DNA from: Sphingomonadaceae bacterium
GTDB lineage: Bacteria > Pseudomonadota > Alphaproteobacteria > Sphingomonadales > Sphingomonadaceae
Assembly (NCBI GenBank): GCA_947454135.1
Contig: CANGJI010000002.1
Coordinates: forward strand, 47,655 to 111,654
DNA length: 64,000 bases
Reading direction: 5' to 3'
A program made the position numbers and the translations under genes. How positions within the stretch are numbered: position 1 is the stretch's first letter; each line of letters starts with the position of its first letter. The notes under the pieces were generated by a model that was not told the origin of the DNA, ran no database searches, and saw nothing but the letters and a program-made list of their open reading frames with translations. Of this stretch, positions 1,586-10,467 are shown one piece after another.

Positions 1586-2422
1586 TTAAGCGCCAAGCCT
1601 GTCGAAGCCGGTGGGCGTCACGTCCTCACCGAAGCGCCATGAGGAGACGGTGATTCCGCCAAACAAATCGGCCTGCGAATAGATGCAGGTCGCCGGATCG
1701 TCGCTCGCCGCGCCGAGCGCGACCATCAGCGGAATCAGGTGATCCTCACGCGGGTGGGCCGCCCTCGCGGCGGGGGCCTGCTCCCAGCGCATGAGCTCGG
1801 CGGCGCGCGCTTCGGGCGCAAGATCGAGCAGGGTATGGCGCAGCCACGCGTCGAACCGGCTGGAAGGGTCCGCCGCCCTTGCATCGAACATGCGCAAGTT
1901 GTGGTAAGTAAGGCCCGAGCCCATGATGACCACGCCTTCCTCGCGCAGCGGCGCGAGCGCGCGGCCCAGCGCGAAGTGCGCGGCGGGATCATAGCCCTGC
2001 TTCATCGAAAGGCTGACAACGGGCAGATCCGCCTCGGGACGGATCGGCTGCATCATCGAGAACGTGCCGTGGTCGAACCCGCGCGCGGGATCATCGCCCA
2101 TGGCAATGCCCGCCGCACCCGCCAGTTCGCGCACACGTGCGGCCAGCGCCGGATCTCCGGGCGCTGTATAGCGGATGCTGTAGGTGTGTTCGGGAAAGCC
2201 GAAGTAATCGTAGACCATCCCCGGCTGCGCGGCGCTGGAAACGGTGAACTCAGGTTCCTCCCAGTGCCCCGAGACCGCGAGCACGGCGCGCGGGCGTTCG
2301 GGCAGCTGCGCCATAAGCGCCTTCAGCGAAGCCTCCAGCCACGCGAAGTTTTCGCGGAAAGCGCCATCGAGCCAGGGCCAGGGGCCACCGCCATGCGAGA
2401 GGAAGAACACGGGCTGTTTCAT
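1586..2422 (-). CDS. Class III extradiol ring-cleavage dioxygenase (YgiD/DODA, LigB family)
   Basis: SHGGGP, SGHWE, RGFDHG, GSGLTYHNL, AHPREDHLIPL motifs. Confidence 0.85.
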   Translation of the reverse strand: MKQPVFFLSHGGGPWPWLDGAFRENFAWLEASLKALMAQLPERPRAVLAVSGHWEEPEFTVSSAAQPGMVYDYFGFPEHTYSIRYTAPGDPALAARVRELAGAAGIAMGDDPARGFDHGTFSMMQPIRPEADLPVVSLSMKQGYDPAAHFALGRALAPLREEGVVIMGSGLTYHNLRMFDARAADPSSRFDAWLRHTLLDLAPEARAAELMRWEQAPAARAAHPREDHLIPLMVALGAASDDPATCIYSQADLFGGITVSSWRFGEDVTPTGFDRLGA

Positions 2423-2498: not shown

Positions 2499-4019
2499 TC
2501 AGAGCTTGGCCAGCACCGATGCCGCGCTTTGTGCGATGCGCGCCTTCTCCGCATCGGCAAACTTGTCGTAAGTCCGCACCATCTGCGCCATGCGCGGATT
2601 GCTGCCGATCTTTGCGCGGTGCCGCGCGATGAAATCCCAGTAAAGCGGGTTGAACGGGCAGGCATCGGGGCCGGTGCGCTGCTTCACGTCATAGCGGCAA
2701 CTGCCGCAGTAGTTCGACATGCGGTTGATATAGGCCCCGCTCGCCGCATAGGGCTTGGAGGCGAGCAGGCCGCCATCGGCGAACTGGCTCATCCCCACGG
2801 TGTTGGGCAGCTCCACCCATTCATAGGCATCGGCGTAGACGCTGAGATACCATTCATGGAGTGCGTGCGGGTCGATCCCGGCGAGCAGCGCAAACGTGCC
2901 CGTCACCATCAGGCGCTGGATATGGTGGGCATAGGCATGCTGGCGCGTCTGCATGACGGCGGCGCGGACGCAGGCCATGTCCGTCTCGGCGGTCCAGTAG
3001 AAATCGGGCAGCGGGCGCGTGTGTTCGAGGAAGTTGCGCCGCTCGTAGCCGGGCGCGGTGAGCCAGTAGATCCCGCGCACATATTCGCGCCAGCCGATGA
3101 TCTGGCGGATGAACCCTTCCGCCGCATTGAGCGGCACGCGGCCCGCCTGCCATTCCGCTTCCACGGCGCGGCACACCGCCAGCGGATCGAGCAGCCCGCA
3201 GTTGAGATACTGCGCGATGACGGCGTGATAGAGGAACGGCTCGCCCTCCAGCATGGCGTCCTGATAATCCCCGAAGCGCGGCAGCGCGCGCTGCACGAAG
3301 GCGGCGAACGCGGCTTCGGCATCGGCGCGGGTCACGGCGAACTGGAAGGGTTCGAGATCACCGAAGTGATTGCCGAAGCGGCTCCCCACCAGCGCCATGA
3401 CCTCTGCCGTGACGCTATCGGGCGCAAAGACCGGGGGACGCGGCATGAACAGGTCGGGCGCGGCGGCCTTGCGGTTCTCGGCGTCGTAGTTCCACTCGCC
3501 GCCAGCAGGCTTGTCGCCTTCCATCAGCAGACCGGTGCGGCGGCGCATCTCGCGGTAGAAGTACTCCATGCGCAGCGCCTTGCGGCCTTCCGCCCATTCG
3601 CGGAACACCGGCAGCGGACACACGAAGCGCGTATCGGGGAGAACCTGCACGGGAAGGCCCAGCTGCGCTTCCCACCCCGCGATCATCTGGGCGACACGCC
3701 ATTCGCCAGCTTCGGTGATCAGGATGCAGTCGGGCCGCCCGGCCGCGACTGCGCGCGCGACTTCGCCGGTGAAGCTGCCGGTGTTGGCCGGGTCGTCGAG
3801 CGTGACATAGTCGACCGTCCAGCCGCCTGCGCGCAGTTCCTCCGCGAAGTGGCGCATCGCGCTGAAGAGGAAGGCGATCTTCTTCTTGTGATGGCGGACG
3901 TACGTGGCTTCTTCCGTCACCTCCACCATCAGCACGCGGTCGCGCGCCTTGTCTGCGGCAGCGAGCGAAGAGAGCACGGGGCTGAGCTGGTCGCCCAGCA
4001 CGAGGACGAGGCGGCTCAC
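2499..4019 (-). CDS. FeS-BCP cryptochrome/(6-4) photolyase (PhrB/CryB type)
   Basis: N-terminal LVLVLGDQL, HHKKKI, MEYFYREMR, YAHHIQRLM. Four FeS-ligand Cys (DMAC, NYCGSC, DACPF). GTG start overlaps the upstream stop. Confidence 0.9.
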   Translation of the reverse strand: MSRLVLVLGDQLSPVLSSLAAADKARDRVLMVEVTEEATYVRHHKKKIAFLFSAMRHFAEELRAGGWTVDYVTLDDPANTGSFTGEVARAVAAGRPDCILITEAGEWRVAQMIAGWEAQLGLPVQVLPDTRFVCPLPVFREWAEGRKALRMEYFYREMRRRTGLLMEGDKPAGGEWNYDAENRKAAAPDLFMPRPPVFAPDSVTAEVMALVGSRFGNHFGDLEPFQFAVTRADAEAAFAAFVQRALPRFGDYQDAMLEGEPFLYHAVIAQYLNCGLLDPLAVCRAVEAEWQAGRVPLNAAEGFIRQIIGWREYVRGIYWLTAPGYERRNFLEHTRPLPDFYWTAETDMACVRAAVMQTRQHAYAHHIQRLMVTGTFALLAGIDPHALHEWYLSVYADAYEWVELPNTVGMSQFADGGLLASKPYAASGAYINRMSNYCGSCRYDVKQRTGPDACPFNPLYWDFIARHRAKIGSNPRMAQMVRTYDKFADAEKARIAQSAASVLAKL

Positions 4020-5542
4020 AGGTCGAGCGCCAGCTGAGAGGTCGGCGCGCGGCGGCGGGACTTGCTGCCCGTCATCGGCATCCCGGCTTTCCGGCTGCCG
4101 TGCTTCTCGGCGATCCGGCTGGCGGTCGCACGGTGGCCCGATCCCTTGCGCACCGCATGCAGGGCATCACGCGCGGCGGCGGCGGCCTTTGCGTGATCGA
4201 CGATCGGCGGCGGGTAGGCGAGGCTGGCCGCCCCGTACCAGCGCCATGGTTCGTGGATCAGCGGGGTCGGAACGTCCGCTACCTCGGGCACCCAGCGGCG
4301 GACAAACACGCCCTCCGGGTCCTGATCGTGGCCTTGCTTGACCGGGTTGTAGACGCGCATCGTGTTGATCCCCGTGGTGCCCGATTGCATCTGCACCTGG
4401 CTCCAGTGAATGCCCGGCTCGTAATCGACGAATTGCCGCGCGAGATGCAGCCCGGTGGCGCGCCAGGGCAGCCAGAGCTGATAGCTGGCGAACGATACCA
4501 GCATCGCCCTCATGCGGAAATTGAGCCAGCCGTTTGCGGCCAGCGCGCGCATGCAGGCATCGACGAAGGGATAGCCCGTGCGCCCCGCTACCCAAGCCGC
4601 CAGCCGATCGGCATCAGGCACATCGGGGCGCAGGCCGTTGTAAGCGGGATGGAGATTCTCGAACTCGAGCCGGGGTTCGTCTTCCAGCTTCTGCATGAAG
4701 TGGCAGTGCCAGTGCTGGCGCCCGGTGAACGAGATCATCGAGGCACGCCAGTTGCGCGCTGGCGCGCTTTCATCGCCGCGCAGGGCGCTGAGCCGCGACT
4801 GGCTCGCCTGCGCCACTTCGCGCATCGACAAGGAGCCCAAGGCAAGGTGCGGCGAGAGGCGCGAACTTGCGTCAAACGCGGTGACAGGGCTCGACATCTG
4901 CCAGCGATAATCGCGCCCGCGCTTCTCCAGAAAGCTCGCCAGCGTGGCCAGCGCCGCCGCGCGCCCGCCGGGCTGGCGCTGCGGGCAGGGATCAGCGGCA
5001 AGGCCGAGATCGGCGGCAGTCGGAATCCGCGTCGGCCAATCACCCCGCAGCGGCTCCAGCGCGGCAGGCGGCGACGCGAGCGGTTCGGCCATCCGGCGAT
5101 CCCAGGCGCGGGCCCAGCCGTAGCGGCTCTTGAGGCGGCGGATCACCCCGGTCTGCGGCACCTCGTGCCACGGCACGCCTGCCTCGCGCGCCCACGCAGC
5201 GACAGCCTTGTCGCGCGCGTAGGTCCAGCCATTGCCGATTTCCTCATGGCTCCACAGCGCGGCGATGCCCCGGCGCTCATGGATCTTGCGCAGGATGGCC
5301 ACGGCATCCCCGCGCACCACGCAAAGCGGCTGGCCGAGCGCACCGAGCGCGTCCTGCAGCTCGCCAAGGCATTCGGCGGCAAAGGCCCATTGCCGCGCGG
5401 AGGCATCGGGCTGCGCCCAGAGTTGCGGCTCTGCGATATAGAGCGGCAGGACCGGTCCCTGCGCTGCGGCGAGTGCCAGCGGGCGATGGTCTGCAATGCG
5501 CAGGTCGCGCTTGAACCAGACCACCTGCAGCGCCGTGCTCAC
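4016..5542 (-). CDS. Cryptochrome/deoxyribodipyrimidine photolyase family protein (class uncertain)
   Basis: VVWFKRDLRIADH, SRLSPHLALG, GRTGYPFVDACMR, WLNFRMRAML, DYEPGIHW, RVYNP. GTG at 5542 overlaps the upstream TGA; the ORF track start at 6286 is an overextension. Confidence 0.88.
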   Translation of the reverse strand: MSTALQVVWFKRDLRIADHRPLALAAAQGPVLPLYIAEPQLWAQPDASARQWAFAAECLGELQDALGALGQPLCVVRGDAVAILRKIHERRGIAALWSHEEIGNGWTYARDKAVAAWAREAGVPWHEVPQTGVIRRLKSRYGWARAWDRRMAEPLASPPAALEPLRGDWPTRIPTAADLGLAADPCPQRQPGGRAAALATLASFLEKRGRDYRWQMSSPVTAFDASSRLSPHLALGSLSMREVAQASQSRLSALRGDESAPARNWRASMISFTGRQHWHCHFMQKLEDEPRLEFENLHPAYNGLRPDVPDADRLAAWVAGRTGYPFVDACMRALAANGWLNFRMRAMLVSFASYQLWLPWRATGLHLARQFVDYEPGIHWSQVQMQSGTTGINTMRVYNPVKQGHDQDPEGVFVRRWVPEVADVPTPLIHEPWRWYGAASLAYPPPIVDHAKAAAAARDALHAVRKGSGHRATASRIAEKHGSRKAGMPMTGSKSRRRAPTSQLALDL

Positions 5543-6726
5543 AACATCCCCTCGGCCCGCAAATGCCCCTCGATCTCGGCATCGAAGGCGAAAAAGCCGC
5601 GCCGCGCGTGCGGCCACAGGCCAGCATCCCAGCGGCGGCGGACAGGGCGCAGCGCAATGCCTTCGCCGGCGAGCGCAGGCTCCAGCGCAGCGAGCGCATC
5701 GGCAACCGGGCCAACCGGCGCGCAGGCCGTCAGCACCTGCCTCGCGCCTGCTGCCTGCGCAGCGGCGATCAGCGTTTCCGCATCGAGCCGGTCCGCCAGC
5801 TTCGCCCCGCAGCCCCAGTACGCCTCGGCCCGAACAGCGGCATCGGCCACCGCTTCGCCGGCATAGCGCCGTGCCGCATCGCCCCACAGCAGCGCGGCAT
5901 CGCCCACGGCCACAACGCCGCGCACCGGCGCATCGGCGGGGAACAGCGATTCGGGATGGAGATCCTCGTGATGGACCAGCAGCAGACTGGGCGCGCCGCT
6001 CTCGGGCGCATCGAGCGCGGCCAGCGGCGCCGCCGGGCCGACCGGTGCTTCGGCAAGGGCCAGCGCTTCCTGCGCAAGACCCTGCGGCGCGAAGCGTCCT
6101 TCGGTGAAGCGGGCGATGTTGTCCGCCCTTGCGAGGTAGGTCTTGCCCGCCGTCTGCAGCCCCGCCACCCAGCGCCACGAAAGCGTGTTGCTGGCCGCAT
6201 CGGCATCGATCAGGTGGCGCAGGAAGAAGTCCGCGCCCAGCGTCCACGGCAGGCGCAAGGTGAAGATCCAGATCGAGGCGAACCACATCCGCGCATGGTT
6301 GTGGAGGTATCCGGTCTCGGCGATTTCACGCGCCCAAGCGTCGAAGCAATCGATGCCGGTGCGCCCTTGTTCGGCTGCCGCAAGATCGGCACGGCCCGCG
6401 TGTCCATCGCGCGCAGCTTCCAGTTCAACCAGATAGCGCCGCCACACCGAGGGCCGCAGTTCGAGCCAGCCTTTCCAGTACGTGCGCCAGCAGACTTCCT
6501 GGATGAACTTGCCTGCCGCCGCAAAGCTGTGCCGGCTCAGAACTTCGGCGACCACATCCTGCTCGGTCACCAGCCGGTAGCGGATCGCAGGCGAAAGGTG
6601 CGAGACGGCGGCGGCCCGGCCCGGCCGCGGATCGGTGTTGCGCCCCGACGCGTAGGCCGCACCGGCGCGCGGCACGAACCGGCGCAGATGATCGAGGGCA
6701 GCGCGGCGGTTGGGGGGCGGCAGCAT
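5539..6726 (-). CDS. Short photolyase-like protein (NewPHL/SPL type, FAD domain N-terminal)
   Basis: 395 aa. FAD-domain motifs (VSHLSP, FIQEVCWRTYWKGWLE, GYLHNHARMWFASIW, DADAASNTLSWRWVAG) lie in the N-terminal half, followed by a short alpha/beta-type C-terminus. Confidence 0.8.
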   Translation of the reverse strand: MLPPPNRRAALDHLRRFVPRAGAAYASGRNTDPRPGRAAAVSHLSPAIRYRLVTEQDVVAEVLSRHSFAAAGKFIQEVCWRTYWKGWLELRPSVWRRYLVELEAARDGHAGRADLAAAEQGRTGIDCFDAWAREIAETGYLHNHARMWFASIWIFTLRLPWTLGADFFLRHLIDADAASNTLSWRWVAGLQTAGKTYLARADNIARFTEGRFAPQGLAQEALALAEAPVGPAAPLAALDAPESGAPSLLLVHHEDLHPESLFPADAPVRGVVAVGDAALLWGDAARRYAGEAVADAAVRAEAYWGCGAKLADRLDAETLIAAAQAAGARQVLTACAPVGPVADALAALEPALAGEGIALRPVRRRWDAGLWPHARRGFFAFDAEIEGHLRAEGML

Positions 6727-6884
6727 GGCCCACGCCCTTGGCCTTGGCGACTTGCGCCGCCCAGATGGTCATGCGGGCAAGTGCTTGGCGCATCGACATT
6801 TCGCGAAAATGGCCAAAGCGTAATGTTCTGCTCACACCTCGGACGGGCGCGCCGCCCTAGAAGGTCCCTCGACGATGGGCGCCT

Positions 6885-6901
6885 GTCACGGGAATCGTGA
6901 C
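6885..6901. promoter_or_regulatory. Inverted repeat GTCACG-N5-CGTGAC in divergent promoter region
   Basis: Perfect 6-5-6 palindrome between the photolyase operon and the GT2 fusion gene. Confidence 0.3.
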
Positions 6902-7038
6902 GTGACGGTCCCCTGTTCCGATTACCGGTCCGGCGTCCATCGTCACCCAGCCGGCTGCCGCAAACCCAGCCCGCGCGCGAGCACTGCCTCCTGCGCGCTG
7001 CCTTGCTGTCTCCGACGCATGCTTTGGGGAATTGTCAC

Positions 7039-10000
7039 GTGTCTCGTCCGATCTTCTTCGATCCCACCGGCCGCCGACGCCGCCTGACCCGCCGCGGCGC
7101 GTTCGTCGGGCTTATCGTGCTGCTGATGGCCGCAGTGGTTTTCGCGACCACGGTGGTGGCGGTTCCCCCCGCCGCGCCGCTCCCGCTCGGCTTCGAGCGG
7201 CAGGCCCCGTTCCCCTTGAAGACGCAGGTGAGCCGGATCTCCCACCGGATCTCGCAGCAACTGAGCCAGCTTTTCGGACGCAACATTGCCACTGCCGCCC
7301 GTGGCACCGGCAAGGGCATCAATGTCGGCTTCTACACGGCATGGACGGACGGCAGCGCGCAGACCCTCGAGCGCCATATCAGCCAGCTCGACTGGGTCGC
7401 GCCGACATTCTTCTCGCTCGGCCAGAACGGCAATCTCGTGGTCACCGACGATGCGCCGATGCGCCGCATCCTGGCCGGTGCGCTGCATCGCCCGCTCGTC
7501 GTGCCGGTCCTGCAGAACGCCGCGAACGCCAAATGGGACGGCGCCGGGGCGACGGCGATCATGCAAAACCCGGTCCGCCGCGCCGCGTTCGTCAACCAGA
7601 TCGACGCCGCGCTCGAAAAGTCGGGCGATGCCGGCGTGATGGTCGACTTCGAGAACCTGCCGAAGCCCGGCATTGCCGCGCTCCAGACGTTTGTCAGGGA
7701 TCTTCGCGCGCGGCTTGCCCAGCATCACCGGATCGTCGCGGTGACCATGCCGATCGATGATCCCGACTGGTCCGCCAAACGCCTTGCCGCAGTGGCCGAC
7801 AAGGTCGTGCTCATGGCCTATGACGAGCACTGGCAGGGCGGCGAGCCCGGCCCGATCGCCTCGAACGGCTGGTTCGCAGGCCATCTGACCGACCAGCTCA
7901 AGGGGCTTGCGACGGACAAGGTGATCGTCGCGCTCGGCAACTATGGCTACGACTGGCACGGCGGCCATGCCGATGTGCAGACCGTCGAGGAAGCCTGGCT
8001 GTCCGCGCATGACAGCGGCACCACGCCGACTTGGGACAAGACCAGCGGCAACACCGGCTTCGGCTATCTCGATGACGAGGACAGCAACGCCGCCACCCCG
8101 CCCGAGCGGCACCAGGTGTGGATGCTCGACGCGGCCGCCAGCTGGAACCAGATGCAGCTGCTCTCGCATCTCGGCGTCGGCTCGGTCGCGCTGTGGCGGC
8201 TGGGCTCGGAAGACCCGGGCTTCTGGGACGTGCTCAAGGCCTGGCGCAACGGGCGCGGCATCGCGCCGGATCTCAGCCGGGTCAAGGAAACCAACAACGT
8301 CGACGTCGAAGGCAACGGCGAGATCCTGCGCATCGACGCGACGCCGGAGGAAGGCTCGCGCAGCGTCCACTATATCGGCGCGCAGCTCGGCCGCCCCGCG
8401 CTGATCGACGACGAGCGCTATGACCGCCTGCCGACGCCCTATGTGGTGCGCCGGACCGGCGACCGCCCCAAGCTCGTCGCGCTCACCTTCGACGACGGTC
8501 CGGACCCCAAGTATACGCCCGAAGTCCTCTCGGTGCTCGAGCGCTACCACGTCCCCGCGACCTTCTTCATCATCGGCGAGAACGGCGTCGCCGGGCGCAG
8601 CCTGCTCCAGCGCATGGTCGCCGACGGCGACGAGATCGGCAACCACAGCTACACCCATCCCAACCTTGCCGAGGATTCGAGCACGGGCGTGAAGCTGGAG
8701 CTCAACGCCACGCAGCGCCTGATCGAGGCCTATACCGGCCGTTCCACCCGCCTGTTCCGCGCGCCCTACTTCGGTGACGCCGAGCCGACCACGTCGGACG
8801 AAATCGGGCCCGCGCTGATCGCGCAGAAGGAAGGCTATACGGTCGTCGGCCTGCACGCCGATCCGGGCGACTGGATGATGCGCAGCGCGGACGACATCGT
8901 CGCCCGCACGGTCTACGCGGTCGAGCATGCCACGCCGGACCGCAGCGCCAACGTGATCCTGCTGCACGACGGCGGCGGCAACCGCGAGCAGACCGTGCTC
9001 GCCCTGCCCCGCATCATCGAACGGCTCGAAGCCGACGGCTACCGCCTTGTCCCTGCCTCGACGCTCGCCGGGCTCAAGCGTGACGATGTCATGCCGCAGG
9101 TCAAGGGCTGGGATCTTGCCGCCGTGCGCATCGACGTCGCGATCTTCTCGGTGCTCGCGGTGCTGCTGGCGGCGCTCAACTGGAGCTTCTTCTTCGCGAT
9201 TGCGCTGGGCGTGATCCGCGCGCTCGGGCTGACCGGCCTCGCGCTCGTGCCCGACAGGCGGAAGGTGCCCACGCTCGACAACGGCTACAAGCCCGTCGTC
9301 AGCGTGATCATCCCCGCCTTCAACGAAGAGCGCGTGATCGAGGAATCCGTCCGGCGCATTCTGGCGAGCGACTATCCGCACATGGAAGTGATCGTGGCGG
9401 ATGACGGCTCCAAGGACCGCACCAGCGAGATCGTTGCGGCAGCATTTGGCGACAACCACCGCGTGCGGCTGATGACCCTGGTCAACGGCGGCAAGGCCTC
9501 GGCGCTCAACCGCGCGCTGGCGGCGGCTTCGGGCGAGATCGTCGTCGCGCTCGATGCCGATACCCAGTTCGAGCCGCAGACCATCGCGCGGCTGGTGCGC
9601 TGGTTCGAGAACGAGCGGGTCGGCGCGGTGGCGGGGAATGCCAAGGTCGGCAACCGGGTCAATCTCGTCACCCGCTGGCAGGCGGTGGAATACATCACCG
9701 CACAGAACATCGAACGGCGCGCGCTCACCCGCTTCGGCGCGATCATGGTCGTGCCCGGTGCGGTCGGCGCATGGCGGCGCGCGGCGCTCAATGATGTCGG
9801 CGGCTATCCGGAAGATACCCTCGCCGAGGATCAGGATCTCACCATCGCGATCCAGCGCAAGGGCTGGAAGGTGTGCTACGACGAGGACGCGGTCGCCTGG
9901 ACCGAAGCCCCCGAAACGCTGGCCGCGCTTTCCAAGCAGCGCTTCCGCTGGGCGTTCGGCACGCTGCAGTGCCTGTGGAAGCACCGCTCGGTGCTGTGGC

Positions 10001-10467
10001 AGCGCAAGCCCGCCGGTCTCGCCTTTGTCGGCATGCCGCAGGCCTGGCTGTTCCAGATCCTCTTCGCGCTGATCTCCCCGCTGATCGACCTTGCGCTCGG
10101 CGTCTCGATATTCGGCACCATCGTCCGGGTGATGCAGCATGGCTGGGCACAGACGCAGACCGACGTGCTGCGCATGGGGCTCTACTGGGCGGCGTTCACC
10201 ACGATCGACCTGCTGTGCGGCTGGGTCGCCTACCGGCTCGATGTGCGCGAGCGGCGTTTCCCGCCGATCCTCCTGCTCAGCCAGCGCTTCGTCTATCGCC
10301 AGCTGATGTACGGCGTGGTCATCCGCGCAGTGGGTGCGGCGCTGCAGGGCCTCGGCATCGGCTGGGGCAAGCTGGAGCGGACGGGCCGCGTCTCGGCAAC
10401 TCAGCTTTCAAACGGGCCGCTTTCAAACGGGCAGGCGCAAGGTGGCAACCAGGCCCTTCCCGCCTGA
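7039..10467 (+). CDS. Trifunctional GH18-like / polysaccharide deacetylase (CE4, NodB) / GT2 membrane protein
   Basis: N-terminal TM; GH18-like VDFENL, LMAYDEHW, GNYGYDW, LWRLGSED; NodB TFDDGP, HSYTHP, RAPY, LLHDGG; GT2 DDGS, LDAD, EDQDL, QRFRW; C-terminal TMs. GTG start after GGGGA SD. Confidence 0.88.
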   Translation: MSRPIFFDPTGRRRRLTRRGAFVGLIVLLMAAVVFATTVVAVPPAAPLPLGFERQAPFPLKTQVSRISHRISQQLSQLFGRNIATAARGTGKGINVGFYTAWTDGSAQTLERHISQLDWVAPTFFSLGQNGNLVVTDDAPMRRILAGALHRPLVVPVLQNAANAKWDGAGATAIMQNPVRRAAFVNQIDAALEKSGDAGVMVDFENLPKPGIAALQTFVRDLRARLAQHHRIVAVTMPIDDPDWSAKRLAAVADKVVLMAYDEHWQGGEPGPIASNGWFAGHLTDQLKGLATDKVIVALGNYGYDWHGGHADVQTVEEAWLSAHDSGTTPTWDKTSGNTGFGYLDDEDSNAATPPERHQVWMLDAAASWNQMQLLSHLGVGSVALWRLGSEDPGFWDVLKAWRNGRGIAPDLSRVKETNNVDVEGNGEILRIDATPEEGSRSVHYIGAQLGRPALIDDERYDRLPTPYVVRRTGDRPKLVALTFDDGPDPKYTPEVLSVLERYHVPATFFIIGENGVAGRSLLQRMVADGDEIGNHSYTHPNLAEDSSTGVKLELNATQRLIEAYTGRSTRLFRAPYFGDAEPTTSDEIGPALIAQKEGYTVVGLHADPGDWMMRSADDIVARTVYAVEHATPDRSANVILLHDGGGNREQTVLALPRIIERLEADGYRLVPASTLAGLKRDDVMPQVKGWDLAAVRIDVAIFSVLAVLLAALNWSFFFAIALGVIRALGLTGLALVPDRRKVPTLDNGYKPVVSVIIPAFNEERVIEESVRRILASDYPHMEVIVADDGSKDRTSEIVAAAFGDNHRVRLMTLVNGGKASALNRALAAASGEIVVALDADTQFEPQTIARLVRWFENERVGAVAGNAKVGNRVNLVTRWQAVEYITAQNIERRALTRFGAIMVVPGAVGAWRRAALNDVGGYPEDTLAEDQDLTIAIQRKGWKVCYDEDAVAWTEAPETLAALSKQRFRWAFGTLQCLWKHRSVLWQRKPAGLAFVGMPQAWLFQILFALISPLIDLALGVSIFGTIVRVMQHGWAQTQTDVLRMGLYWAAFTTIDLLCGWVAYRLDVRERRFPPILLLSQRFVYRQLMYGVVIRAVGAALQGLGIGWGKLERTGRVSATQLSNGPLSNGQAQGGNQALPA

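Follow-up and report, generated by a model that had tools for sequence, protein, structure and literature searches.

A conserved row of three cryptochrome/photolyase-family genes in a Sphingomonadaceae genome includes a NewCRY-type protein with a candidate sliding-clamp-binding tail

We analysed a 64,000-nucleotide stretch of DNA from a Sphingomonadaceae bacterium (GenBank assembly GCA_947454135.1, contig CANGJI010000002.1, positions 47,655 to 111,654 of the forward strand), which is called the window below, and within it a row of three genes that all encode cryptochrome/photolyase-family (CPF) proteins. The assembly comprises 3.39 Mb in 151 contigs, is 93% complete and has its nearest relatives in Novosphingobium; the GC content of the window is about 68%. 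An earlier note, made from the letters of the window, had described the row as three different photolyase/cryptochrome classes in one translationally coupled operon and as a complete, lesion-partitioned kit against ultraviolet (UV) damage. The three minus-strand open reading frames, their boundaries and the two GTGA stop/start overlaps that join them are indeed all seen in the sequence. Together with the one short element on which much of the discussion below turns, they are as follows:

5539..6726, minus strand: gene 1, a NewPHL / SPL subgroup A photolyase, 395 amino acids
4016..5542, minus strand: gene 2 ("P2"), a VcCry2 / NewCRY / "DASH-like" CPF flavoprotein, 508 amino acids, GTG start at 5542
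2499..4019, minus strand: gene 3, an FeS-BCP / CryPro protein, predicted (6-4) photolyase, 506 amino acids
4019..4036, minus strand: candidate beta sliding-clamp-binding motif in the last six codons of gene 2, Q503-L-A-L-D-L508

Gene 1 is the first gene of the unit because its upstream neighbour is divergent and lies on the plus strand. At the junction of genes 1 and 2, the TGA stop (5541-5539) and the GTG start (5542-5540) share a 4-bp GTGA overlap, and the junction of genes 2 and 3 is built in exactly the same way (stop TGA at 4018-4016, start GTG at 4019-4017). The Pfam content of all three genes matches the domain layout that had been claimed for them: gene 1 contains PF03441 only, gene 2 contains PF00875 and PF03441, and gene 3 contains PF04244 (DPRP).

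The NewPHL class, to which gene 1 belongs, was defined via DsNewPHL and MmNewPHL (Emmerich et al. 2020, PMC7736829) and equals subgroup A of the SPL proteins (Xu et al. 2021, PMC8476157). As in other members of this subgroup, the topology of gene 1 is inverted, with the catalytic domain that binds flavin adenine dinucleotide (FAD) at the N-terminus. PF03441, the sole domain, covers residues 74-206 of 395, there is no N-terminal alpha/beta antenna domain, and the PDB matches of the protein span the C-terminal halves of photolyases only. The alignment shows that all residues that serve to repair cyclobutane pyrimidine dimers (CPDs) or to contact FAD are kept. The equivalents of E. coli E274, W277, N341, R344, M345, D372, N378, W382 and W384 are E77, W80, N143, R146, M147, D174, N180, W184 and W186, and these positions are, together with D176, invariant in 12 homologues. 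The catalytic domain is followed by a C-terminal Z-domain of about 150 amino acids, in which W366, W371 and the G377-F378-F379 motif are conserved, as is typical of the subgroup. Residues 245-395 form a five-stranded beta-alpha-beta domain, which is confident in the AlphaFold2 (AF2) model. The fold search with the gene 1 model was discarded, as the overall predicted local distance difference test score (pLDDT) was 70; its result is meaningless because the catalytic half is poorly modelled.

A four-cysteine Fe-S motif is absent from gene 1. Its cysteines (79, 127, 306 and 335, of which only C306 is invariant) form no CxxC...C pattern. This absence, shared with the alphaproteobacterial members of subgroup A, sets gene 1 in that subgroup, apart from subgroups C and Ac. 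Judged by its residues and domains, gene 1 most likely encodes a CPD photolyase specific for single-stranded DNA. Like the NewPHL proteins in the reports on the class, it occurs alongside class I/III and (6-4) photolyases but not alongside DASH proteins.

The start of gene 1 requires a comment. NewPHL relatives are annotated at 406-410 amino acids, from an upstream ATG (ATGAYCATCTGGGC...). In the window, the ATG (region 6726-6772) lies 46 nt upstream of the gene 1 start, not 45, and is out of frame. The 395-residue form that begins at 6726 is the only open form here, and the N. sediminis protein likewise has 395 residues. At loci L018, L021, L024, L034 and L009, which come from several Sphingomonadales and other metagenome-assembled genomes (MAGs), a gene whose product is a conserved ...GAAAFAAMWRAIPLLRPLG... 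protein extends into the start of NewPHL. This protein looks like a thiol-disulfide oxidoreductase of the DUF393/DCC type, and its gene would be an extra first gene of the operon that is lacking in the window.

Gene 3 is the clearest case of the three. Judged by its alignments, it is unambiguously an FeS-BCP and an orthologue of Agrobacterium tumefaciens PhrB and Rhodobacter sphaeroides CryB. It matches PF04244 at 2e-83 and both proteins over their full length (PhrB, 4DJA, at 1e-204 over residues 2-506; CryB, 3ZXS, at 4e-195). The cysteines of the [4Fe-4S] cluster, C350, C438, C441 and C454, align with those of PhrB, and the pair His365-His366 is conserved in both. We detected no difference between gene 3 and these two proteins at the sequence level, and only the operon context differs. 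Repair of (6-4) photoproducts by gene 3 is predicted from this orthology only.

Gene 2 had been called a canonical-architecture photolyase. As far as the architecture is concerned, this description is accurate: the protein has the canonical two-domain fold (AF2 predicted template-modelling score, pTM, of 0.86). In a Foldseek comparison, the model is equally distant from the structures of class I and class III photolyases, of DASH proteins and of plant and animal CRY, with a TM score of about 0.78. The best PDB sequence match, E. coli class I photolyase (1DNP), reaches only 2e-43, and 4U63 only 2e-33. Gene 2 falls below every NCBIfam class cut-off, including those for class I, 8-HDF, DASH and class II proteins: it scores 186 against 506 for NF007955, 163 against 885 for TIGR03556 and 144 bits against 317 for the DASH family TIGR02765.

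Alignment to the E. coli enzyme shows that the positions used in repair have been replaced. E274 is changed to S or R, N341 to F342, M345 to A346 and N378 to H379, and both W382 and W384 are lost. The active-site block reads R275-x-H277-W278-H279-C280-H281-F282, to which F342, A346 and H379 are added. The substitutions are invariant in 18 homologues, which have the block R-x-H-W-H/R-C-H-F-x-Q-K-L-E in common. In a maximum-likelihood tree, the gene 2 family forms one clade of 52 members with 100% support in the approximate likelihood-ratio test (SH-aLRT); outside this clade the tree held five Cry-DASH proteins, E. coli class I photolyase, two class III photolyases and 12 NewPHL catalytic domains, and it was built without class II and eukaryotic (6-4) references.

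The class to which these features point has been described before. NewCRY is defined by the loss of the equivalents of E. coli E274 and N341, with VcCry2 as its representative (Emmerich et al. 2020, PMC7736829), and the same class has been called the "DASH-like / prokaryote-specific group" (Xu et al. 2021, PMC8476157). One gammaproteobacterial protein from the gene 2 clade retrieves Vibrionaceae proteins named "Cryptochrome-like protein cry2" in NCBI and UniRef, and over its whole photolyase region gene 2 itself is 39% identical to the Grimontia protein of this name (E 2e-119); the comparison is one with named relatives and not with the VcCry2 sequence. The loss of E274 and N341 together with the match to cry2-named proteins therefore places gene 2 in the NewCRY/VcCry2 class. 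As is typical of the class that VcCry2 (VC1392) of Vibrio cholerae represents, gene 2 has the two-domain fold and misses both residues. It shares the signature blocks HWHCHF-QK-E, NFRMR and D-x-EPGIH with the Vibrionaceae cry2 proteins and belongs to the same monophyletic clade. From its sequence, gene 2 is thus a member of a class that is an orphan in function, with the photolyase fold and the FAD-contact motifs kept and the pocket rebuilt and rich in histidine.

Three other identities were considered for gene 2 and do not fit it. It is not a Cry-DASH, as it scores far under the family cut-off given above and lies outside the DASH clade. A class I or class III CPD photolyase is contradicted by family scores far below the cut-offs and by the replaced CPD-binding residues. 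PhrSph98 of Sphingomonas sp. UV9, a bifunctional CPD/(6-4) photolyase, was rejected because it is class II-like and still has the Glu and Asn that gene 2 has lost.

Phylogeny and the domain and residue checks hence put the three genes in three different CPF clades, no two of them sharing a class, as the earlier note had proposed. Its NewPHL/SPL label for gene 1 is borne out by the inverted domain order, the intact CPD residues and the Z-domain with its GFF motif, and its FeS-BCP label for gene 3 by the full-length PhrB/CryB match and the four cluster cysteines. What has to be given up is the notion that gene 2 is a conventional photolyase, since its repair residues are replaced, it misses the cut-offs and it forms a clade of its own.

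A further feature of gene 2 lies beyond its photolyase region. The tail of the protein consists of a conserved KHGSRK block (480-485), a basic disordered linker and the terminal hexapeptide QLALDL (503-508), so that the C-terminal peptide reads ...RRAPTSQLALDL. In the AF2 model residues 485-508 are disordered, and the pLDDT is below 50 from residue 485 on. The canonical motifs by which proteins bind the beta sliding clamp are Q-phi-x-[L/M]-[F/L] and Q-phi-x-[L/M]-x-[F/L], and they are often found at the extreme C-terminus, for example in Pol II and Pol IV (2024 review, PMC11139829). QLALDL fits the second of these forms.

The tail is a property of the relatives of gene 2 as well. In all 18 NewPHL-linked P2 proteins, the KHGSRK block and a basic linker of about 20 residues lead to a terminus of the form Q-L-x-L-D-L/F, QLSLPL or QxxLF, and Q503 is invariant. 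All 12 other readable Sphingomonadales P2 proteins, whether or not the genome has a NewPHL gene, end in QLSLFD, QLNLFD, QMSLFD, QLSLSF, QLKFEF or similar. For the family at large we took 150 representatives (clusters at 50% identity, all with E 1e-145 or better), and 48 of them have the strict motif in their last 30 amino acids. The controls were far lower: 9 of 2436 other 30-residue windows (0.4%), 0.8 ± 0.9 in composition-preserving shuffles of the tails and 0 of 119 NewPHL tails. Within this genome, the canonical terminal motif is found in 8 of 6252 long reading frames, one of which is gene 2.

The P2 tails include textbook clamp peptides, and pentapeptide (QLSLF, QLNLF, QLDLF) and hexapeptide (QLVLGL, QLSLPL, QLALDL) forms alternate within the family as they do among known clamp partners. 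This short linear motif, in general form Q-phi-x-[L/M]-(x)-[F/L], is present in the C-terminal tails of Pol IV (QLVLGL), Pol II (QLGLF) and UmuC (QLNLF) and at the N-terminus of Hda (QLSLPL) (PMC11139829). As in the known clamp tails, the motif of gene 2 is placed at the very end of a disordered segment with a free carboxylate, and the penta- and hexapeptide forms are interchanged among orthologues. Its carrier is a flavoprotein of the photolyase family, a kind of protein that we did not find among the described clamp partners. The tail suggests that gene 2 may be recruited to DNA-loaded clamps.

Full-text literature searches retrieved no paper in which the clamp is tied to photolyases or cryptochromes, nor are these proteins listed in the review cited above (PMC11139829). 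We therefore found no earlier description of a clamp-type tail, which is carried by about one third of the NewCRY-type proteins. The feature may have been overlooked because the cry2 subgroup has no such tail. All Sphingomonadales members examined share with gene 2 the KHGSRK block, the basic linker and a QLxLxL or QLxLF ending; in contrast, the proteins of the gammaproteobacterial cry2 subgroup end directly past the H-V-R-P block.

Two further observations belong to the tail. The DinB protein of this genome was intended as a local yardstick for the clamp motif and had to be dropped, as the sole Y-family match is ImuB-like: a search for Y-family polymerases in the 93%-complete assembly returned only this match (C48:8560-10416) and no DinB. 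Several long members of the P2 family (P0227, P0247, P0261-P0263 and P0265) end not in a clamp motif but in C-x2-C...C-x2-C repeats, one or several per protein, that are of the W/CxxCTFxN type. These zinc-finger-type ends resemble RanBP2/NZF, their carriers are probably eukaryotic, and they may be an analogous recruitment tail.

The arrangement of the three genes is far beyond chance. Gene order is identical in Novosphingobium sediminis, Novosphingobium sp. NDB2Meth1 and a Novosphingobium genome from the ENA, with the same 4-bp overlaps and the same 76-nt spacer behind the third gene. The order shared by the Novosphingobium genomes begins with a response regulator, a kinase and a synthase, continues divergently with NewPHL, P2, FeS-BCP and a LigB-type gene, and ends with DUF6671 and DabA. 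In a wider survey of 80 NewPHL loci from different species, with flanks of up to 10 kb, a P2 gene was found within 10 kb at 21 loci (NewPHL then P2 at 14 of them, P2 then NewPHL at 4) and an FeS-BCP gene nearby at 13. The arrangements were distributed as follows:

Collinear trio NewPHL, P2, FeS-BCP: 5 loci (Sphingomonadales, an unclassified proteobacterium, a Moraxellaceae MAG)
NewPHL then P2: 9 loci, four of them cut by a contig end (Caulobacterales, Acetobacteraceae, Rhizobiales, Parvularculaceae)
P2 then NewPHL: 4 loci (Rhodobacterales)
NewPHL then FeS-BCP: 2 loci
P2 elsewhere within 10 kb of NewPHL: 3 loci
FeS-BCP near NewPHL in another arrangement: 2 loci
NewPHL alone, both flanks clear for 3 kb or more: 35 loci
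NewPHL alone, with flanks too short for judgement: 20 loci

The cluster thus recurs in several bacterial orders, and so do its junctions. The complete trio was counted at nine loci overall. NewPHL and P2 overlap by ATGA or GTGA at 11 of 14 loci, and the junction of P2 with FeS-BCP measures -4 or -1 nt in four of the five trios. Conservation of the overlaps across loci fits translational coupling, which is probable for the three genes. A single promoter for all of them is plausible, and we infer that they are co-transcribed.

The partners of the P2 gene are not limited to NewPHL. Among 151 Sphingomonadales genomes, NewPHL is present in 22, P2 in 13 and FeS-BCP in 50, and most of the P2 genes adjoin an FeS-BCP gene, often convergently and in genomes from which NewPHL is absent. 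At 28 Cry-DASH loci of Pseudomonadota (flanks of 1.5 kb), P2 is adjacent in 7 and FeS-BCP in 11; at two gammaproteobacterial loci (L107:2-4282 and L111:3-4252, in genomes G203 and G377), P2, DASH and FeS-BCP follow one another on one strand. Both NewPHL and DASH are CPD photolyases specific for single-stranded DNA, and they are mutually exclusive across species (PMC7736829, PMC8476157). In these clusters they fill the same slot beside the same partners: the single-stranded-DNA photolyase is exchanged and the partners stay. This swap provides good genetic support for the view that the three functions form a set.

Operons of this general kind have precedents. Several CPF paralogues of different classes are combined in a two-gene operon that UV-B induces in Synechococcus sp. 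PCC 7335 (PMC9649867), as they are in the unit predicted here, and SPL/NewPHL is linked to FeS-BCP in a predicted operon of Cyclobacterium marinum (PMC8476157). Unlike those operons, the alphaproteobacterial one described here joins NewPHL with NewCRY and FeS-BCP, and in Gammaproteobacteria the position of NewPHL is taken by DASH. The papers on NewPHL and SPL give co-occurrence at the species level and the predicted SPL/FeS-BCP operon; a conserved overlap with a NewCRY-type gene is not reported there.

A fourth CPF gene lies elsewhere in the genome, on contig C54, and encodes a class III photolyase of 455 amino acids (4U63 at 4e-130). Because of its position, the repair of CPDs in duplex DNA, which is the main photoreactivation activity, is encoded outside the operon. 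Of the complete lesion-partitioned kit that had been read from the window, the joint presence of three distinct classes stands; completeness within the operon does not, given the class III duplex CPD photolyase on C54 and a gene 2 without CPD-repair residues. About 12 kb from the class III gene, the same contig carries a homologue of the radical-SAM SplB/PA0069-type "DNA repair photolyase" (CxxxCxxC; C54:16080-17222, minus strand), which ends, past a basic linker, in ...RPPRRDGQLALF (QLALF). This ending, too, is a canonical C-terminal clamp-binding motif, and the gene is another of the 8 reading frames counted above.

The surroundings of the operon in the window consist of the following features:

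1586..2422, minus strand: LigB-type extradiol dioxygenase gene (PF02900 at 1.5e-27), 76 nt 3' of gene 3
6727..7002, given on the minus strand: intergenic region of 276 nt that separates the operon from the divergent GH18/CE4/GT2 polysaccharide synthase gene
7003-10467, plus strand: GH18/CE4/GT2 polysaccharide synthase gene (deacetylase/glycosyltransferase fusion), the divergent neighbour

Over the core of the intergenic region (about 6790-6950, some 160 nt), four Novosphingobium genomes are 91-94% identical at the nucleotide level, whereas their coding genes are 78-87% identical. The core occurs once in the genome and contains nested inverted repeats: GACGATGGaCGCC ... GTCACG-N10-CGTGAC ... 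GGCGCCCATCGTC. A riboswitch or other structured RNA was considered for this segment and rejected, as there is no Rfam match and the fold energy is ordinary (z about -0.7). The core is probably the shared promoter/operator of the divergent photolyase and polysaccharide-synthase units. A promoter of the sigmaE/ChrR type was likewise rejected. The 300 nt upstream of the operon contain no TGATC and hence no TGATCC sigmaE-type motif. We found no ChrR in the assembly, which at 93% completeness does not prove its absence; the Cupin_7 matches are not ChrR-like and have no ECF sigma factor gene next to them. The idea of a response to singlet oxygen, raised in the earlier note, is therefore left without sequence support.

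At the other end of the operon, a terminator scan found no intrinsic terminator in the 76-nt gap between gene 3 and the LigB-type gene. The sole terminator-like site, at 5601-5614, falls inside the codons of the gene 1 GFF motif. Two bases past the FeS-BCP stop and inside the gap there is a perfect palindrome, GTTCGAC-TTT-GTCGAAC (2480-2496); as no T-run follows, it is not a classic terminator. The LigB-type gene is absent from the clusters of other taxa, and its 76-nt spacing is kept in the three Novosphingobium genomes. It is a possible fourth member of the operon in the Novosphingobium clade only, and as a conserved operon member it was rejected.

In view of these results, the explanation that we consider likely is that of a native, conserved operon of three paralogous CPF flavoproteins, with coupled translation being probable, which adds rarer photoreactivation activities to those of the class III enzyme encoded elsewhere, and in which gene 2 is a NewCRY protein with a clamp-type tail. 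In such an operon, gene 1 would reverse cyclobutane dimers in single-stranded DNA and gene 3 would reverse (6-4) photoproducts. Gene 2 would be tethered by its tail to DNA-loaded sliding clamps at primer-template junctions, replication forks and post-replication gaps. Through this tethering, the module would reach lesions in gapped or single-stranded DNA, which are beyond excision repair. Once at the clamp, gene 2 might repair a lesion by means of its histidine-rich pocket, recruit its operon partners or sense light. The proposal that it acts at loaded clamps is drawn from the motif together with the genomic partners. Loaded clamps mark primer-template junctions and the single-stranded gaps opposite UV lesions, where excision repair fails and a photolyase for single-stranded DNA is useful.

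Several points weigh against this explanation. The intergenic region contains no match to the sigma-70 consensus. The AF2 model of gene 2 is weak at residues 376-394, the loop beside the flavin, and because of this the description of the pocket follows from sequence alignment only. In the Vibrionaceae/Alteromonadales cry2 subgroup, the clamp motif was found in 0 of 120 proteins, and two thirds of the P2-family clusters do not have it, including the subgroup of the only studied member; for this reason, clamp binding is ruled out as the core function of the class. In V. cholerae, a cry2 mutant had no phenotype in survival under blue light (PMC11976125), and Emmerich et al. prefer a signalling role for NewCRY (PMC7736829).

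A more specific form of the explanation makes gene 2 a replisome-associated branch of the photolyases. Tethered to the clamp at stalled forks or gaps, it would reverse, in a light-dependent manner, a lesion that is out of reach of the other enzymes, or hand such a lesion over to the single-stranded-DNA photolyase (NewPHL or DASH). Candidate substrates would be (6-4) or Dewar photoproducts in single-stranded or primer-template DNA, accommodated by the histidine-rich pocket. We hold this form only tentatively and think it rather unlikely to be correct as it stands. If it is true, a two-by-two scheme of lesion (CPD or (6-4)) and DNA form (duplex or single-stranded) would be complete once the class III enzyme is counted in, and the orphan NewCRY class, which makes up about 8% of the superfamily, would gain a function.

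The opposite possibility is that gene 2 is a true cryptochrome, a flavin-based sensor of light or redox state that regulates the operon or another pathway without any DNA chemistry, and whose tail motif serves another partner or positioning. Emmerich et al. (2020, PMC7736829) considered NewCRY unable to repair CPDs because the repair residues are missing, and regarded signalling as the only feasible role. C-terminal extensions are typical of cryptochromes, repair activity has not been documented for the class, and the lack of a phenotype in the V. cholerae cry2 mutant (PMC11976125) is in agreement with such a role. However, the blue-light transcriptome was unchanged in a triple cry1 cry2 phr mutant of the same species (PMC5241685), the tail conforms to both known forms of the clamp-binding consensus and is strongly enriched, and the steady genomic partners of the gene 2 family are DNA-repair photolyases and not regulators. 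We therefore judge a pure sensor to be unlikely.

Two further alternatives are less probable still. If gene 2 were a conventional CPD photolyase for duplex DNA, the operon alone would be a complete kit for CPDs in double-stranded DNA, CPDs in single-stranded DNA and (6-4) photoproducts. Its canonical pair of PF00875 and PF03441, its best PDB sequence match to E. coli class I photolyase and the name "deoxyribodipyrimidine photo-lyase" given to many of its relatives would suit such an enzyme. It is nonetheless very improbable, in light of the replacement of six residues from E274 to W384, the scores far under the class I, 8-HDF, DASH and class II cut-offs, the separate clade and the bona fide class III CPD photolyase that the genome already has. 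The remaining alternative concerns the operon itself: the genes could be neighbours left by the shuffling of paralogues and be expressed independently from internal promoters, with overlaps that reflect mere compaction. Order and orientation do vary by lineage (P2 before NewPHL, convergent P2/FeS-BCP pairs, dispersed copies), and neither a promoter nor a terminator was assignable in the scan. However, both junctions are preserved at most loci, that of genes 1 and 2 across orders, and the coding sequence leaves a terminator no room, the sole match being inside the conserved GFF codons. Independent expression thus appears improbable to us, and a native operon with coupled translation is the reading that we retain.

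All three protein classes and operons with several photolyases have already been published, so that the operon as such adds one more ordinary case to a known kind of gene cluster. The recurrent module of NewPHL or Cry-DASH, a NewCRY-type protein and FeS-BCP is of wider interest, in that it genetically ties the NewCRY class, for which no function has been assigned, to DNA repair and not to regulators. The clamp motif makes the function of the NewCRY/VcCry2 proteins experimentally approachable. If its role is confirmed, a family of direct-reversal enzymes would be coupled to the replication clamp.

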